From positions 1,343,938-1,407,937 of the forward strand of contig JBEKFP010000001.1 of NCBI GenBank assembly GCA_050013255.1: 64,000 bases of DNA, given 5' to 3'. A program made the position numbers and the translations under genes. Source of the stretch: Candidatus Bathyarchaeia archaeon (GTDB taxonomy: Archaea > Thermoproteota > Bathyarchaeia > 40CM-2-53-6). Numbering within the stretch: the first letter of the stretch is position 1; each line of letters opens with the position of its first letter. Shown here piece after piece: positions 37,492-46,208 of the stretch. The notes under the pieces are model-generated. The model was not told the origin of the DNA, did not search any database, and was given only the letters and a program-made list of their open reading frames with translations.

Positions 37492-37959
37492 TCAGAACTG
37501 TTTGAGGACATCTTCTCGTTCCATAACGTGACCGCAAAATGAGCAGCGCAGGCGGATTGGTTCTCGCCGGTCCACCCCGAACCTTGGTTCCACTGGTTCC
37601 CTAGAATTCGATATACACGAAGGGTTATCGCACTTTATGATTCCTCTAATGCTGGATGGTAATTCAACTACCTTCTTAGAAGATACATCGTAATTCCGAA
37701 CTATGTTAATAGTGGCGTTGGGTGCGATTAATGCGATTTTATCAACCTCGCTGGGTTTCAGTTCCCTATTCTGAATCTTGACAATATCCTTGTGCTGAAG
37801 CTGCTTACTCTCGACGTTCATCGCAACACTTACAACCTCGCCATCCTTCCCATTTATTCCAAGAATTTTCAGAACGTCAAGCGAGTAACCAGGCGTTATA
37901 TGATCGATAACTGTCCCGTTCGTAATCTTCCTAACGTACAGCTCTTGGCGCGTTTGCAA
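37492..37959 (-). CDS. pyrI: Aspartate carbamoyltransferase regulatory subunit
   Basis: KI.NGTVIDHI, KDIVKI, CDNPSCIS...RCSFC. Confidence 0.97.
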   Translation of the reverse strand: MQTRQELYVRKITNGTVIDHITPGYSLDVLKILGINGKDGEVVSVAMNVESKQLQHKDIVKIQNRELKPSEVDKIALIAPNATINIVRNYDVSSKKVVELPSSIRGIIKCDNPSCISNSREPVEPRFGVDRREPIRLRCSFCGHVMEREDVLKQF

Positions 37960-38263
37960 AACCTTTCAACTGCTCCAATGTTTGCCAACCGTTATTTAAC
38001 CCTGAAAAAAGTAGAGTTCAATGCGGGCTTCTAGAAAGAAATGAGAGAACGCTTCTTCAAGGCGTCTCCTCAGCGATCTTCGAACGGCATCCTACAATCC
38101 CGACTTGAAATATAGCTTACGGCCAAATCCTATTCTACAACTATTTCCACATGCCAAGAGGCTAGGCAACGTAACCTACTTCGAACCTGGACGCTGCGTA
38201 TGATAGAACTAGGGAATAGGTGCTTATTAGTCGTGGGAACATTGGGCTTCTGGCGCGTGGCTA

Positions 38264-39184
38264 ATGGAATTTGCGGGAAGAGACATTGTATCAATCAAAG
38301 ACTTCTCTCGTGAAGAGATTGACTACATTCTGAAAACAACTGATTCCTTAGAGCCGATGGCGAGGAAGGGATCCCATGGTCTAGACGGGAGGATCATGGC
38401 CACGTTGTTCTTTGAACCTTCTACTAGGACCAGGCTAAGCTTCGAATCAGCAATGTACCGGCATGGTGGAAATTGCATTGGTTTCGCGGAACCGAAAATT
38501 TCCTCAGTTGAAAAAGGGGAGAACCTAGCAGACACGGTCCGAGTCGTGGAAAGTTACGCTGACATCCTCGTAATACGTCACCCACTGGAAGGGGCTGCTC
38601 GGCTCGCGGCCGATTTCGCATCCGTCCCAGTCATCAACGCCGGTACCGGTGCAGAAGAACACCCCACTCAAGCCATGCTTGACCTGTACACAATTCGCAG
38701 GGAGCTTGGGAAGATTGACGGGCTGAACATCGCTCTCGCGGGCGACTTGAGGTACGGCCGCACCGTTCACTCTCTAGCCTACGCCCTGTCTCTTTACAAT
38801 ATCAACCTCTACCTAGTGTCCCCTCCCTTGTTGAGGCTGCGTAAAGAAGTCCTAGAGGAGGTAAGTGGACGTGTCAAAGTGCAGGAGTTCGAGGAACTCT
38901 CTAAAGTAATGCCCCAAGTTGACGCACTCTACATGACCCGGATCCAGAAGGAGAGGTTCGGCTCCCTGGAAGATTATGAAAAAGTGCGCGGCTCTTACAG
39001 GCTCAGCGCGGCCGACCTGACCCGGGCTAAACCGAAGATGATCATAATGCATCCGCTCCCCAGGGTCGACGAAATCGAGTACAGCGTTGACAATACGCCA
39101 CATGCGAAATACTTCAAACAGGTATGGTACGGATTACTAGTTCGAATGAGCTTAATTGGGCTGGTTCTTGGCGCGCTAAAGTAG
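38264..39184 (+). CDS. pyrB: Aspartate carbamoyltransferase catalytic subunit
   Basis: FFEPSTRTRLSF, HPTQ, GDLRYGRTVHS and MHPLPR motifs. Confidence 0.98.
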   Translation: MEFAGRDIVSIKDFSREEIDYILKTTDSLEPMARKGSHGLDGRIMATLFFEPSTRTRLSFESAMYRHGGNCIGFAEPKISSVEKGENLADTVRVVESYADILVIRHPLEGAARLAADFASVPVINAGTGAEEHPTQAMLDLYTIRRELGKIDGLNIALAGDLRYGRTVHSLAYALSLYNINLYLVSPPLLRLRKEVLEEVSGRVKVQEFEELSKVMPQVDALYMTRIQKERFGSLEDYEKVRGSYRLSAADLTRAKPKMIIMHPLPRVDEIEYSVDNTPHAKYFKQVWYGLLVRMSLIGLVLGALK

Positions 39185-39247: not shown

Positions 39248-40000
39248 ATGCGATTAGAAGTACTCCCATCCTCGCGAAAACGCCGAGTTCTGCCCATGCA
39301 CGTAGTGAACTACACGGCGTTTCGAGAAGACTTCCGCACAGATGAGGACGAGAGTGAACTACATCTCTTAGAGGAGTTTCACGCCGCCCGAGTTCTTTCC
39401 CAGAGCGGTGACGTGGATACCTTTGTCGGACCAATTCTTTACGACCCCGAGAAGCATTCGCATCGGTTCACCCCTGACCTGGCCGGAGTCGAAGGGGGCA
39501 CTGTAACTGCAGTTTTCTGTGAAACAAGAGCGCCTGACGAAGCGCTACTGAAAGACTTGGGAGTAATAGACGAGGCCGAGAACTCGAAAGCTGTCGTAGT
39601 CTACCCGTCTAGGGTAAACTCCAACCCTATAGATTCCAGGTTCCCCGACGCGGTTGACTCAGGCAAGTTCGTAATCGAACATCTGAATTGGCGAGACCGA
39701 GGGCTAGAAAGGGCTTTTCGGGAAGCACTAGAACTCATGGACCTGTTATGTAATGAAACACGAGTGAAAATGCTCCTCCCACTGCTTGAGGCCCCTCAGG
39801 GCAAGAAGAATTTCAGGGAAGGAATAAACCCTAAACTCATCTACGAAAACGTCCCCCTTCTGAGAGCACACAAACTAATCGCCGAGCTATCAGACGACCT
39901 GTACGACCTTACTCCAATTGGCAAGACAATCCTCGGCGAATACTTGGCATTCGTTGAGAAAGTTAGGGGTCTGCTCGAAAAAGCAGACAAGGAAGAATAG
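39248..40000 (+). CDS. Hypothetical protein with C-terminal winged-helix domain
   Basis: L.NETRVKML..L...Y.LTPIG pattern. Confidence 0.6.
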   Translation: MRLEVLPSSRKRRVLPMHVVNYTAFREDFRTDEDESELHLLEEFHAARVLSQSGDVDTFVGPILYDPEKHSHRFTPDLAGVEGGTVTAVFCETRAPDEALLKDLGVIDEAENSKAVVVYPSRVNSNPIDSRFPDAVDSGKFVIEHLNWRDRGLERAFREALELMDLLCNETRVKMLLPLLEAPQGKKNFREGINPKLIYENVPLLRAHKLIAELSDDLYDLTPIGKTILGEYLAFVEKVRGLLEKADKEE

Positions 40001-40016
40001 CTCGGGGTTGAACAAG

Positions 40017-40505
40017 ATGAGTACAATGATCGAACGTTTGGACTCTTCTCGTGACTTTAGTGACGTCTTCGAACTCGTCAAGAAATCAGCAGAACGCTCG
40101 CTAGGGCGACGTAGAGCTGGGCTGATGCTCTATCTGGCCAAGCTCCCAAAGCACATCGGCGGATACCACACTATGGGAACGAATGGCATCGTAATGAACA
40201 GGACAATTCTTGAAACGGTGACGCATGGCGCACGCTCTCTCCGTGAAATAAACTCATACGTCTATTCAATTCTGCTCCACGAGTATTTGCATTCACTCGG
40301 ATATGTGGAAGAGGGGGATGTGCGAAGGCTAGTGTACGACGTATCACTGGAAACATTCGGCCCAAACCATCCGGCTACTCAAATAGCTTCGAAGGGTCCG
40401 GGTGTCATGTTCCCCGAAATCTCACTTCACGATGTCCCAACGGAGTCGCCAGATGTTGAAGTGATTCCGGATTTGGAGAGAAGTAGCCAACGTTACATTA
40501 GTTAG
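40017..40505 (+). CDS. Zincin-like metallopeptidase domain protein
   Basis: LLHEYLHSLG motif. Confidence 0.75.
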   Translation: MSTMIERLDSSRDFSDVFELVKKSAERSLGRRRAGLMLYLAKLPKHIGGYHTMGTNGIVMNRTILETVTHGARSLREINSYVYSILLHEYLHSLGYVEEGDVRRLVYDVSLETFGPNHPATQIASKGPGVMFPEISLHDVPTESPDVEVIPDLERSSQRYIS

Positions 40506-42813
40506 ATACCGTGTAGGATACCCGCCTTTCCACACTTCTCTTCTTTGCCTCAGGCCAGAGGCTGAATGGTAGCAGACCGTAAGAAGATCTGCCAAGATGC
40601 GTGATCTTGTCTGACTCGCAGTTGCTGCATTTCGGAGTTATTCCTGGATCAGTGTGGTTGCAGACACTGCACGCTGAATAGTTTGATGTATAAACCAAAA
40701 ACTTGCAACCAGAATCAAATGCCTTCGCTGTAAGTCTCATGAGTGCGGGCGCCGTCGAATCAGGCGAGATGCAGACTAAGCTGAGGTGGCCGCCAGGCGT
40801 CGCGGATTGAAATCTCGACTCCAAATCAAGCCTGCTATCGATAGTCATTTTGGTTGTCAGCGGGATGGTCGGTAAGTCGGTGTAGTAGAATAGCCCTCGA
40901 GACCCGTCCGCTACGATCGCTGCCCTACCATATTGCTCAATGTCCAACTCCGCAAGCCTTCCCGCGGCTTCGTCTCCGGGCCTTTGTGAAGCGGAGATAC
41001 GCATTTCTGATTCCTCCGAAGCAGACTTTAGCAGGCTCGAAACTTCTTGCAATATCTTTAACCCGAAGTCTGCCGCCGCCCCATCTCGTTCCATCTTAAG
41101 TCCCGTGTGGGCTTCAACGGCTTCACTCAGGCCAATGAATGAGAGATTGTAGGACGAATTCTTCTCGTAGAAGTAAGGTGCGGTCCCACTCTCTCCAGCC
41201 AATAGGTGCAGAAGTGGTTGTTTCATGCGTTCGCTGATGAATTTTTTCTTGACTTTGAAACCTTCAACAGTGAGCGAGACCGTCTCCCTGAGTTGTGCTG
41301 AGAATTTTCCATCGTTCTTCTTCGCCTGGTAGGCGATCCTAGGTAGATTCAAGAAAATGGTGTCCATGCTACCTGTTCTGACGCAATCAGCGTCCCAGTG
41401 ATTAGTCCATTCATCGCCCAGCCTGAGCCCCGTGCCGGAGTAACTGCTCTTCTCTCCATCCTCACTAAGCTGAAACACGGGTATGCTTCGTTGGGCCGCT
41501 AGTTCGTGCGCTTTCTCAAGCATGGCTCTAGCCCGCTCATCACTCAACGCCTTACGCCCAACCCTTACTACCAGGTGGGGGAGAATGGGGGGCCTCGATT
41601 GCGACATCTTCTGAAACGCTTCGATTGTCGCACCCGCCAACAGGCGGCTTTCCTCACCATAGTCTGAATACTTGCTTGCCGCTTTACCCCCTGGCCCAAT
41701 CGCATCCTCCTGCGAAATGAATTCGGGGGTGATCAAGTCAATTGAGATTGAAATGCCAGCTTGGGGGCTACTCGAAGGGATATCCCTCCGCATTGAAGTG
41801 AGAAAATAATACAGACCATTTGAAATGTCCCCCGCCGTTCTTCCCCGGACGTATGGAGATAGGAAGGTGTTGAAGAACTCAACTGTCTGCTCCCCCGAAA
41901 CCTCACCCGCTCCAATTTCTAACACTTGACGGACTAGGGCAAGCGCCGCCTCAAATGAATCAGGTGGCAACATTCCGAATAGACTGTTTCTGAGGAAGTA
42001 GCGAATGTCGTGGATTATCTCATTTGGAGTGAGAATCCAATTTTCCAAATTTGCTATGTGAATTTCGCCTGATAGGTGGGCGTCCGCCAGTTTGTGGGGA
42101 AGGCAGTTAAGCAAAACATATTCCGATAGAACTGACCTTGCGGAGGAACGTTGCACATACTCCGCGCTAAGCTGTTTATCGCCCGCAGTTTTGATGAGTT
42201 GGGCAACATCGTAAACTGGCATACCGAGCCTTGTGAGCTTGTGGCGGTACTCTTCCAACTTCTTTTCAATTAAGATCGCATTAACGAACTCACGGATCAG
42301 GGGTGCGGTAAGATACGCCGTCTTCAACCTGATCAGCCTATCCTCAGCCTCAGCAGCTATCTCATCCGCAATCTCTTGTGGGACACCCGCCTCGACAACC
42401 AGTGATTTTGCGATCTTGTTCCTGTGAAATTCCTCTATGGCAAGCCTGGAAGATCTGACGTATAGTTTTCCGCGCTTTACATTCACATATTCATCCAAAT
42501 CTCTGGAGAAGGAAACAATCATTCGACCGAGTTCAGTGACCTCATATCGTTTCGTCTTCTTCTCAAGCGTGACTAGGCCGGTGTCCGTTAGGCTTCGGAG
42601 ATGGTAAACAAACTTCCCAGCGTCGCGCACAGGGTCGAGTTTGAGCTGGAACATTATCTCCGTGTACTGTAGAGAGCCCTTCGTTGAGAGAAGTCGCAAA
42701 ATCTGTAGTCGGACCGGGGCAGACGCGGCATTGAAGATGCCCGCACCAACTCTCTCCGATGAACGAAACAAACAATTACCGCCCAGAAGATGGCTCGCAA
42801 CCACTATAGGCAT
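40498..42813 (-). CDS. ArsR-type HTH + ATP-cone + class III ribonucleotide reductase (NrdD)-like protein, catalytic motifs degenerate
   Basis: R..IL..L...YHL..L...GLV HTH; ATP-cone LTAPLIREFVN..L; ADAHLSGEIHI, NLPRIA, IGLSEAV, GGH, CxxC...CxxC; C-terminal RSSYG in place of RxxGY. Confidence 0.85.
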   Translation of the reverse strand: MPIVVASHLLGGNCLFRSSERVGAGIFNAASAPVRLQILRLLSTKGSLQYTEIMFQLKLDPVRDAGKFVYHLRSLTDTGLVTLEKKTKRYEVTELGRMIVSFSRDLDEYVNVKRGKLYVRSSRLAIEEFHRNKIAKSLVVEAGVPQEIADEIAAEAEDRLIRLKTAYLTAPLIREFVNAILIEKKLEEYRHKLTRLGMPVYDVAQLIKTAGDKQLSAEYVQRSSARSVLSEYVLLNCLPHKLADAHLSGEIHIANLENWILTPNEIIHDIRYFLRNSLFGMLPPDSFEAALALVRQVLEIGAGEVSGEQTVEFFNTFLSPYVRGRTAGDISNGLYYFLTSMRRDIPSSSPQAGISISIDLITPEFISQEDAIGPGGKAASKYSDYGEESRLLAGATIEAFQKMSQSRPPILPHLVVRVGRKALSDERARAMLEKAHELAAQRSIPVFQLSEDGEKSSYSGTGLRLGDEWTNHWDADCVRTGSMDTIFLNLPRIAYQAKKNDGKFSAQLRETVSLTVEGFKVKKKFISERMKQPLLHLLAGESGTAPYFYEKNSSYNLSFIGLSEAVEAHTGLKMERDGAAADFGLKILQEVSSLLKSASEESEMRISASQRPGDEAAGRLAELDIEQYGRAAIVADGSRGLFYYTDLPTIPLTTKMTIDSRLDLESRFQSATPGGHLSLVCISPDSTAPALMRLTAKAFDSGCKFLVYTSNYSACSVCNHTDPGITPKCSNCESDKITHLGRSSYGLLPFSLWPEAKKRSVERRVSYTVSN

Positions 42814-42949
42814 GAATCGATGTTTAAAAAATTGTAGTTGCAGTCATTCCTTCGTCAAGGAACGCGAAATCTCCGCAGTTACCATCATTGAGAATCTTTA
42901 TCTTTACTCAGCATGCGAGGGGCTTCTATCCAGCACAGGTTGGTTGGAA

Positions 42950-43465
42950 ATGGATGAAATGCGAATGCGGGACGACGATTACAAAACGCTAGCGAAATTG
43001 GAAGAAGCGTTCGAAAGAAAGGATCTTTCATACTTCAAATCTTTTCTCCAAAACTCGAAGGGGCTCCCTCTCTTATTGCGTGTTCACTCAGTCTGTATGC
43101 TTGAGCACATTGGAAGCGAGGAAATGGTGGAGTCTTTGTGTGTGGTCCTCGCAGAAGATGCAAGCCCGCTTACAAGGCATGAGGCTGCGTTCACCCTGGG
43201 CCAGTTAGGTTACCGTTCTGCTGTACCCGCGTTGGTTGAGGCAATGCTTCATGACGAGAGCCCAATCGTCCGACACGAATCGGCTGTAGCACTGAGTTCC
43301 ATAGGCGACGATGGAGTGGTTCCAGATCTGAAGAAAGCGATTGAAGATGAAGATGAGGACGTGCGCAATTCGGCGTTAATCGCCTTCGAATACCTGGGTT
43401 ACATCCGCCGGAAAAGGGAAAGCGCTGGCGACAAGTTTGCGGTTAAACCGAAGATCAGGCTGTGA
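42950..43465 (+). CDS. HEAT-repeat (PBS lyase/DOHH-like) protein
   Basis: RHEAAFTLGQ and VRHESAVALSSIG repeats; ATG 42950 preferred over the ORF-track start. Confidence 0.85.
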   Translation: MDEMRMRDDDYKTLAKLEEAFERKDLSYFKSFLQNSKGLPLLLRVHSVCMLEHIGSEEMVESLCVVLAEDASPLTRHEAAFTLGQLGYRSAVPALVEAMLHDESPIVRHESAVALSSIGDDGVVPDLKKAIEDEDEDVRNSALIAFEYLGYIRRKRESAGDKFAVKPKIRL

Positions 43466-45437: not shown

Positions 45438-46208
45438 ATGAAACGACTCATCGCCATCTTGATACTGTTGATGCTCTCGGTTCCGATGGGGGTTAACGCT
45501 CTTCCTCCGCGGTATGCTATTCCCAAAGGCCAAGCCCTGATTTTGTCCTCTCTGAACGAAACAAATCCTATGGGTCAATACGGCAAGAATGCTGTCTGGT
45601 ACTTGACGCATGCAGGATACAACGTAACATACCTAACCGATGGCCAAGTGACCGTCGATTTACTCCTAACCCGGATGAAGAACTACAACGTCGTGATCTG
45701 GCGAACTGACAGCTTCACCTGGAAGCACGTCACCTACTGGTGGGTTGGAGAAAAAGTGAACGATGGAGTACAGGACGAATACCCAGCCGATTTCGCACAA
45801 GGCTGGCTAAATGCCAACACTGGTATTGTTGGAATAAGTTCGGAGTTCTTCACAAATCACCTCGGGCCAAAAACTCTGACCGGTGTCTCGCTACTGATGT
45901 TCCTCTCGAGTGATGGCAATGCGGTTGCACCCATGTTTGTTACAGCGGGAGCTTCGTCAGTAATTTACTGCAACGGGTCGATTTCCCTTGAATTTGGCTT
46001 AATAGATGATCTCTCTATCCAAATGGTTGCATACCTAACCCAAGGAGAGAGCGTCTACTCCGCCGTGTACGCTACAGTGTCTCCATTCAACCAGGGACAG
46101 CAACCGAAAGACCCCCTTGACAATACATATGCCCCACCATTCTGGTACATCGGCGACGGTTCGGTAATAATTGCTTCAAGCATCCGTGCAACTCCTCACA
46201 TATCCTGA
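45438..46208 (+). CDS. Hypothetical secreted protein
   Basis: Signal peptide followed by an alpha/beta domain. Confidence 0.65.
   Translation: MKRLIAILILLMLSVPMGVNALPPRYAIPKGQALILSSLNETNPMGQYGKNAVWYLTHAGYNVTYLTDGQVTVDLLLTRMKNYNVVIWRTDSFTWKHVTYWWVGEKVNDGVQDEYPADFAQGWLNANTGIVGISSEFFTNHLGPKTLTGVSLLMFLSSDGNAVAPMFVTAGASSVIYCNGSISLEFGLIDDLSIQMVAYLTQGESVYSAVYATVSPFNQGQQPKDPLDNTYAPPFWYIGDGSVIIASSIRATPHIS

Follow-up and report, generated by a model that had tools for sequence, protein, structure and literature searches.

NrdR, a bacterial repressor specific for ribonucleotide reductase (RNR) genes, is composed of a Zn ribbon and an ATP-cone, and its occurrence is mainly bacterial (PMC9110341); it uses a pair of boxes as its operator (PMC12176259). 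Among the reductases themselves, the archaeal double-Cys QCCR lineage of the class III enzyme NrdD carries one or two ATP-cones. Furthermore, regulators derived from enzymes are known in the form of BirA, PutA and NadR, one-component regulators or trigger enzymes that retain their catalytic activity. We know of no account of how RNR transcription is controlled in most archaea. Here, a window of 64,000 nucleotides from Candidatus Bathyarchaeia archaeon (contig JBEKFP010000001.1) was analysed, with the focus on one gene of its minus strand, the product of which (P0001) joins an ArsR-type winged helix-turn-helix (wHTH) and an ATP-cone-like domain to an NrdD-like body. The source assembly, labelled G000, has 2.46 Mb and is 100% complete by markers with a contamination of 8.55%; the other G-numbers denote relatives in the same order. 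Sequence comparison supports well that the encoded protein is a pseudoenzyme, a catalytically dead NrdD, and we consider it rather probable that it works as a dimeric DNA-binding transcription regulator of deoxynucleotide supply. In the literature, no paper was found on a wHTH-NrdD fusion or on a regulator built from an RNR catalytic subunit.

Domain architecture and loss of the radical residues

The open reading frame (ORF) is uninterrupted over 771 aa from the first ATG (40498..42813; this and all parts of the gene given below lie on the minus strand). The original prediction took this ATG at 42813 as the start. However, when 12 upstream regions from the genus are aligned, it proves unconserved, whereas a TTG at 42771 is kept (GTG in one of them). 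Ahead of this TTG stands the Shine-Dalgarno-like sequence GGCGGTAA, and many homologues have lengths of 754-757 aa. The real start is therefore most likely the TTG, and the probable coding sequence (40498..42771) has 757 aa.

The N-terminal domain (residues 26-101, 42511..42738) was assigned from Pfam and Foldseek matches. DUF7347 of Pfam gave 35.2 bits, above its cut-off of 27.6, while ArsR HTH_5 (20.7 bits), HTH_20 and HTH_45 remained slightly below theirs. Residues 20-200 were modelled separately for the structural search, and this model was matched by Foldseek to the ArsR, CadC, SmtB and NolR repressors with root-mean-square deviations (rmsd) of 2-3 Å. The fold is predicted to be a winged helix-turn-helix with a recognition helix, RDAGKFVYHL, which is invariant throughout the order. 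The resemblance to ArsR/SmtB repressors thus includes the wHTH fold, the HL..L...GLV pattern of the recognition helix and the Pfam and NCBIfam matches. Unlike these repressors, the domain scores below the ArsR family cut-offs with archaeal DUF7347 as its best match, it is fused to a 650-aa RNR-derived body, and no evidence for metal-sensing sites was seen in it.

The second domain (residues 118-189, 42247..42462) was assigned as ATP-cone-like from Pfam, Foldseek and alignment. PF03477 reached 22.7 bits by hmmscan (cut-off 25.8) and 26.8 bits in a six-frame search of the genome. In the stand-alone model the region has a predicted local distance difference test (pLDDT) of 65-89, and it was matched by Foldseek to the NrdR ATP-cones 9a6n_B and 7p37_A with an rmsd of 2.5 Å over 79 columns, the E-values being weak. 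The cone that had been proposed here would be a degenerate variant: VRSSR stands where a KRDG-type motif is expected, and the C-terminal EYRHK..R is retained. In the ATP-cone of P. copri NrdD, the basic residues at the nucleotide phosphates are Lys7, Arg8, Arg87 and Arg91 (PMC11226230). In the protein studied here the N-terminal Lys-Arg pair of these phosphate contacts has become Ser/Thr-Ser, and Arg120, Arg123 and the C-terminal YRHK..R are invariant.

The largest part (residues 216-767, 40513..42168) is an NrdD-like barrel with its C-terminal domain. It was matched by Pfam NRDD at 222 bits, and the NrdD equivalog TIGR02487 gave 238 bits, below its cut-off of 326. An AlphaFold2 (AF2) model computed from 36 family members has a pLDDT >90 in the body. 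The best structural matches of this model in Foldseek were all solved NrdDs, namely those of P. copri, T. maritima, S. thermophilus and T4, with E-values of 1e-26 to 1e-19 and template modelling (TM) scores, on the target, of 0.74-0.76. The model indicates a ten-stranded NrdD barrel and a C-terminal Zn ribbon, the four cysteines of which (C715, C718, C729 and C732; 40618..40671) are invariant in the alignments. With class III NrdD the protein has in common this fold, the Zn ribbon and the NLPRIA and GGH motifs. Pfam, AF2, Foldseek and the alignments thus confirm the architecture first proposed, an ArsR-like wHTH followed by an ATP-cone, here of a degenerate kind, and an NrdD body with Zn-ribbon cysteines.

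The catalytic positions were mapped in three ways, by phmmer against T4 NrdD, by MAFFT together with E. coli NrdD and intact archaeal NrdDs, and by a family profile. Glu265 (42019..42021, within PNEIIHD) takes the place of the first catalytic Cys (C175 in E. coli, C79 in T4), and Glu is kept there across the family. The thiyl-radical Cys (E. coli C384, T4 C290) is replaced by Leu463 (41425..41427, within SGTGLR), and this position is Leu or Phe in the family. Where the glycyl-radical motif RxxGY is expected, the protein reads R742-S-S-Y-G746 (40576..40590). The position of the radical Gly corresponds to Tyr745 by MAFFT and the family profile and to Ser744 by single-sequence phmmer; in no alignment register does RSSYG offer a Gly followed by an aromatic residue; across the family the position is Y, A or S. 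These substitutions, RSSYG for RxxGY and PNEIIHD and YSGTG at the Cys sites, had been read from the sequence beforehand, and all three mappings bear them out. Moreover, the NxN flap, of which the ENAN shuts over the substrate in P. copri NrdD (PMC11226230), is affected. According to the MAFFT alignment, ENAN is kept in the intact paralogues and lost in wHTH-NrdD, where KTAGDKQ (42172..42192) takes its place. The loss of the Cys/Cys/Gly set extends throughout the wHTH clade (84/84 rows), and all aligned full-length wHTH-bearing representatives are devoid of it, with the CCCC of the Zn ribbon kept in nearly all. One copy, from G023 (L033:3351-5654), has a Cys at the thiyl position and a Gly at the radical position (KYAGR), without the first Cys and without the RxxGY context. 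It was treated as an outlier, for which partial reversion, chance or an error of the alignment could account.

The absence of the activase gene nrdG, noted originally for the window, was extended to the whole G000 genome, in which no NrdG reached its cut-off (TIGR02495, 40 bits vs 131; TIGR02491, 28 bits vs 126). In the relatives that have an intact nrdD, NrdG is present with 172-221 bits, and G018, which has the dead form only, contains no NrdG above cut-off, the best score in G000 and G018 being about 40 bits against 131. No second NrdD-like gene and no match to TIGR00244, the NrdR family, were found anywhere in the G000 genome. A separate RNR is present in the form of one copy of class II NrdJ (TIGR02504, 681 bits) with a strong ATP-cone, and from its sequence this enzyme covers the supply of deoxynucleoside triphosphates (dNTPs). 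Hence, catalytic death is indicated by the loss of both catalytic Cys, the radical Gly and the NxN flap, by the lack of an activase and by a dNTP supply that NrdJ covers. The same losses, together with the score below the equivalog cut-off, distinguish wHTH-NrdD from class III NrdD. The dead RNR scaffold of the original prediction is well supported by the three alignments, the loss of the flap and the absence of NrdG.

Origin and conservation of the family

In a FastTree phylogeny built on the body columns only, all wHTH forms fall into one clade (84 rows) with a Shimodaira-Hasegawa-like support of 99. The sister clade comprises the intact double-Cys NrdDs and two further dead groups with two ATP-cones and no HTH. 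Five proteins encoded outside the window, P0180, P0192, P0226, P0235 and P0239, are NrdD-like with two ATP-cones and lack both the wHTH and the catalytic Cys/Gly. With these additional dead groups, radical chemistry has seemingly been lost at least three times in the archaeal NrdD lineage.

Three genomes, G027, G032 and G040, also have an intact nrdD, which follows wHTH-nrdD immediately downstream on the same strand. The intact proteins read FCQEHD, QCCR, RITGYY and CCCC. They are 32% identical to the query and have the inner cone and linker in common with it (VRTS[KR]...SAPLIRELV...YTRLGMPVYDV). Their inner cone (VRTSR...YTRLGMPVYDV) is degenerate as well. The closest active representatives contain two ATP-cones, and the inner cone is common to both kinds of protein. 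Thus, within one NrdD lineage, the wHTH occupies the place of the first cone of the active relatives, and the degenerate inner cone was kept. By these comparisons the family derives from the double-Cys lineage of archaeal class III RNRs, and its wHTH-bearing forms make up one old clade.

The N-terminal module was found in 96 of the 105 genomes of the order, in 25/25 genera and in 31 of 33 high-quality genomes, nearly always as a single copy. Identity of the full protein over ten families ranges from 41 to 100%. Within the genus, residues 20-200, which hold the wHTH and the cone, are 89-98% identical, and the whole protein is 66-94% identical. The ratio of nonsynonymous to synonymous substitution rates (dN/dS), calculated by the Nei-Gojobori method for G000 versus G018/G021 at a dS of about 1.3 that is close to saturation, was 0.02 in the wHTH and 0.012 in the cone with its linker; the body gave 0.065 and the Zn/C-terminal part 0.13. 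The original prediction had asked for the conservation of the fusion and would have been refuted by a degeneration unique to this genome, and such uniqueness was not found. With values of 0.012-0.13 in every part and the module order-wide, the gene is, on sequence evidence, functional under strong purifying selection and not in decay. An exhaustive profile-free search returned 1807 representative clusters at E <= 1e-3 and 365 clusters (50% identity) at E <= 1e-30. The members carry the taxon label Bathyarchaeia, or Nitrososphaerota in a divergent 632-aa group, and their source names are mostly 'anaerobic ribonucleoside-triphosphate reductase'. Because nearly all members are annotated in this way, metabolic reconstructions would wrongly credit these organisms with a class III RNR.

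A candidate operator and the proposed regulatory role

A conserved block of 40 nt was found upstream of nrdJ. It recurs upstream of the intact nrdD in G032 and G040, with a looser version in G027. The nrdD gene is not homologous to nrdJ, and the genomes concerned are of other families. The RNR box defined from it has 38 nt with the consensus gTACAnTaTTTTATAcAanncTGTCnAAAAcTntTAaa, in which an imperfect ACA-N16-TGT dyad with an A/T-rich centre is seen by inspection. At nrdJ of the source genome it lies at G000:C1:538580-538618, where C1 is contig 1. The 3' part of the box covers the position of the B recognition element (BRE) and TATA box, about 55 nt ahead of the start codon. The strict pattern TTTTATAYWNNNNTGTNNAAAA gave 28 matches in 25 of the 105 genomes, against 1 match for the reversed control. 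As many as 24 of these 28 are located 60-140 nt upstream of a co-oriented RNR gene. In four genera this gene is nrdJ; two have the box at an intact nrdD. Two of the remaining 4 matches are unexplained. The third belongs to a duplicated copy of the nrdJ promoter, located on contig 3 of G000, and the fourth falls between pyrB and pyrI of G080, in a region that adjoins the wHTH-nrdD gene. A relaxed position weight matrix (PWM) detected looser boxes ahead of nrdJ in two further families, and with these copies and the strict matches RNR genes bear the box in 7 of 10 families. In G000 two sites received PWM scores of 52 and 47 bits, and the site ranked after them had 10.5. A conserved RNR-specific promoter element, new in this analysis, thus exists as judged from these alignments and pattern counts.

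The promoter of the wHTH-nrdD gene itself contains the BRE/TATA-like element AACTACAATTTTTTAAAC (42822..42839), which is invariant in the genus, and TTTTTTAAAC within this promoter is kept throughout the order. The match of the element to the RNR box covers the left arm and the centre. The left 15 nt of the box, TACAAT[AT]TTTTA[AT]AC, occur in G000 only at the nrdJ promoter and at this promoter, and TTTTTAAA has only five occurrences in the genome. The 18-mer of the gene's own promoter was considered as a shared operator and rejected, as it is unique in the genome. Sharing of TACAAT-TTTTA as proof of a regulon was likewise weakened, because tRNA promoters show RCAAN followed by a T-rich box, which makes this the general BRE/TATA form here. 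A relaxed motif chosen post hoc, AC[AC][AG]T[AT][AT]TTTA[AT], has 5 matches, namely nrdJ, pyrI/B, the wHTH-nrdD gene, the large-subunit gene of DNA polymerase D (PolD-L) and one intragenic site.

We hypothesize that, if the protein regulates deoxynucleotide supply, dimerisation and a ligand-sensing surface would be provided by the conserved NrdD scaffold. The ligand would be sensed through the cone-like domain, the old allosteric or active-site pockets, or both, and the two wHTH domains of the dimer would read a dyad operator. The best candidate for this operator is the 38-nt RNR box, which across the order overlaps the BRE/TATA region in front of both nrdJ and intact nrdD. DNA binding, recognition of the candidate box, the sign of any regulation and a nucleotide signal, the sensing of (d)NTPs included, are inferred from these comparisons. 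The role fits the constrained wHTH, the linkage to pyrB/pyrI, the link to intact nrdD where one is present and the RNR-specific box. Thus, of the earlier suggestion that an RNR was repurposed as a transcription factor, the dead scaffold stands, and the regulatory part agrees with several results, none of them direct.

Several observations weigh against such a role. The promoter of the gene itself lacks the full RNR box, and autoregulation via the full box was rejected on this account. G016 (96% complete, 3 contigs) has the box at nrdJ, and neither the regulator nor the pyrB block was found in it. In G002, G005 and G009, a subgroup of the genus, the regulator is present with an identical recognition helix, and nrdJ has a different upstream region without the box. 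The left half shared by the two promoters in G000 may represent core-promoter similarity and not an operator, since it looks like a good BRE plus TATA. Moreover, the cone is without the Lys-Arg pair that contacts the phosphates in P. copri NrdD, and, because the substrate-closing flap is gone, canonical nucleotide binding is not assured.

It is possible, and we put it forward only tentatively, that the wHTH-NrdD family is the missing archaeal counterpart of NrdR, the dimer of which would read the RNR box over the BRE/TATA region of class II as well as class III RNR genes and would couple RNR transcription to the dNTP pools via the inherited allosteric nucleotide sites. By analogy, both would be nucleotide-responsive regulators of RNR genes that use an RNR-derived module. 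Conserved boxes stand ahead of RNR genes of different classes in both cases, and the cone fold matches NrdR structures. On the other hand, the DNA-binding parts are unrelated, a wHTH here and a Zn ribbon in NrdR; the archaeal protein is five times larger and holds a whole dead catalytic subunit in the order wHTH, cone and NrdD body; and its cone lacks the canonical Lys-Arg pair. The candidate box is also a single ACA-N16-TGT dyad, whereas NrdR uses a pair of boxes (PMC12176259). In comparison with BirA, PutA and NadR, an enzyme scaffold is again joined to a DNA-binding domain, and metabolite status could by analogy be read at a promoter, but wHTH-NrdD is a pseudoenzyme. If the proposed role is true, a core gene of a widespread archaeal order of sediment and peat, with relatives labelled Nitrososphaerota, would encode an RNR-derived regulator, and a transcription factor would have been made from the very type of enzyme that it regulates. 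Pseudoenzyme evolution would also gain a clear example, in which an entire radical enzyme has been maintained over hundreds of millions of years to serve as sensor or scaffold. The question of RNR regulation in archaea would then be open to a direct test, now that a protein and a 38-bp candidate operator have been defined.

Neighbouring genes and alternative readings

In the genus, the gene is part of a conserved block with pyrI, divergent from pyrB, then pyrB, the convergent wHTH-nrdD and a divergent HEAT-repeat gene. In the window, pyrI, for the regulatory chain of aspartate carbamoyltransferase, lies at 37492..37959 (minus strand), and pyrB, for its catalytic chain by Pfam, lies at 38264..39184 (plus strand) in a conserved convergent arrangement with wHTH-nrdD. 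The HEAT-repeat (PBS-lyase-like) gene (42950..43465, plus strand) is kept beside wHTH-nrdD in the genus. Between pyrB and wHTH-nrdD, two conserved plus-strand ORFs of 250 and 195 aa (39248-40000 and 39918-40505) are found throughout the genus, and in other families their place is taken by the intact nrdD. Linkage of pyrB to wHTH-nrdD is also found in five other families.

This neighbourhood bears on a different assignment, which we regard as unlikely, in which the protein is a transcription regulator with other targets or another signal, such as pyrB/pyrI or a wider set of DNA-replication genes, and the RNR box is read by another factor or is a specialised core promoter. The order-wide linkage to pyrB/pyrI agrees with it, as do the one strict box match in the pyrB/pyrI intergenic region of G080, the near identity of the pyrI/pyrB promoter element to one upstream of the PolD large-subunit gene, and the genomes in which box and gene are separated, G016 with the box and no gene and the subgroup of the genus with the gene and no box. 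Nevertheless, the protein is itself derived from an RNR, its gene directly precedes the intact nrdD, with the box lying between the two, and neither NrdR nor any other obvious RNR regulator was found, all of which argues for RNR genes as its targets.

A role outside transcription is, in our view, quite improbable, namely that of a non-catalytic protein partner in which the dead body binds an RNR or another nucleotide enzyme, for example as a heterodimer with intact NrdD, and the winged helix serves protein contacts or nucleic-acid tethering. Purifying selection on a body that is dead, the retention of the Zn ribbon and of many NrdD surface motifs, and the intact paralogue that adjoins the gene in some genomes could all be explained in this way. 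Moreover, two other dead NrdD groups have no HTH at all, so that loss of catalysis needs no DNA-binding role. However, in G000 and most of the genus there is no NrdD available for pairing, the wHTH is highly conserved with an ArsR-type recognition helix, and the status of a single-copy core gene suits a regulator. That the protein is still an enzyme, either with a displaced radical glycine (the G of RSSYG, Gly746, one residue past the expected position) or with new non-radical chemistry at Glu265, His268 and Asp269, is highly improbable in spite of the confidently predicted barrel and the invariance of E265, H268, D269 and R464, given that Leu or Phe replaces the thiyl Cys in the entire clade, that Gly746 is unconserved (relatives read SSATY, SSSTY or SSYSL), that activase and NxN flap are lost, and that the HD pair does not make a new site, since it was taken over from the intact paralogues (FCQEHD).

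Apart from the regulator of deoxynucleotide supply that we favour, some minor features of the region and genome were observed. The pyrI/pyrB promoter element AACCGTTATTTAACCCTGA (37988-38006 of the window) has its closest genome-wide match, with 2 mismatches in 19, just upstream of the large-subunit gene of DNA polymerase D (G000:C1:698290-698308; L069 about 2791-2809). The tRNA-Thr promoter resembles this element, which may be either a strong core promoter or a control sequence common to genes for DNA synthesis. In G016, contig C1 (L099:1489-2592) encodes a 368-aa pyrB product with a pyrI-like C-terminal piece, about 50% identical to PyrB of the window. The duplicated nrdJ promoter of G000 (C3:39323-39361; L096:1492-1530) is nearly identical to the first in the box, the TATA region and the 5' untranslated region up to the Shine-Dalgarno sequence, and only a 10-codon ORF and unknown genes follow it downstream. 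This copy may be a promoter duplication, a capture or, considering the contamination of the assembly, sequence of a contaminating relative. Pfam and NCBIfam gave no match for the ORFs near it or for those at 39248-40000, 39918-40505 and 45438-46208 of the window, and ARAGORN detected no tRNA gene between 33000 and 48000. The sequencing runs listed for the locus were all of peat and wetland DNA, with none of RNA among them. As for base composition, TTTAAA, TTATAA and TATATA are strongly depleted in the G000 genome (TTTAAA, 85 per strand vs about 580 expected), and between its genes (GT)n/(CA)n and words resembling GTGCGCAC are over-represented.

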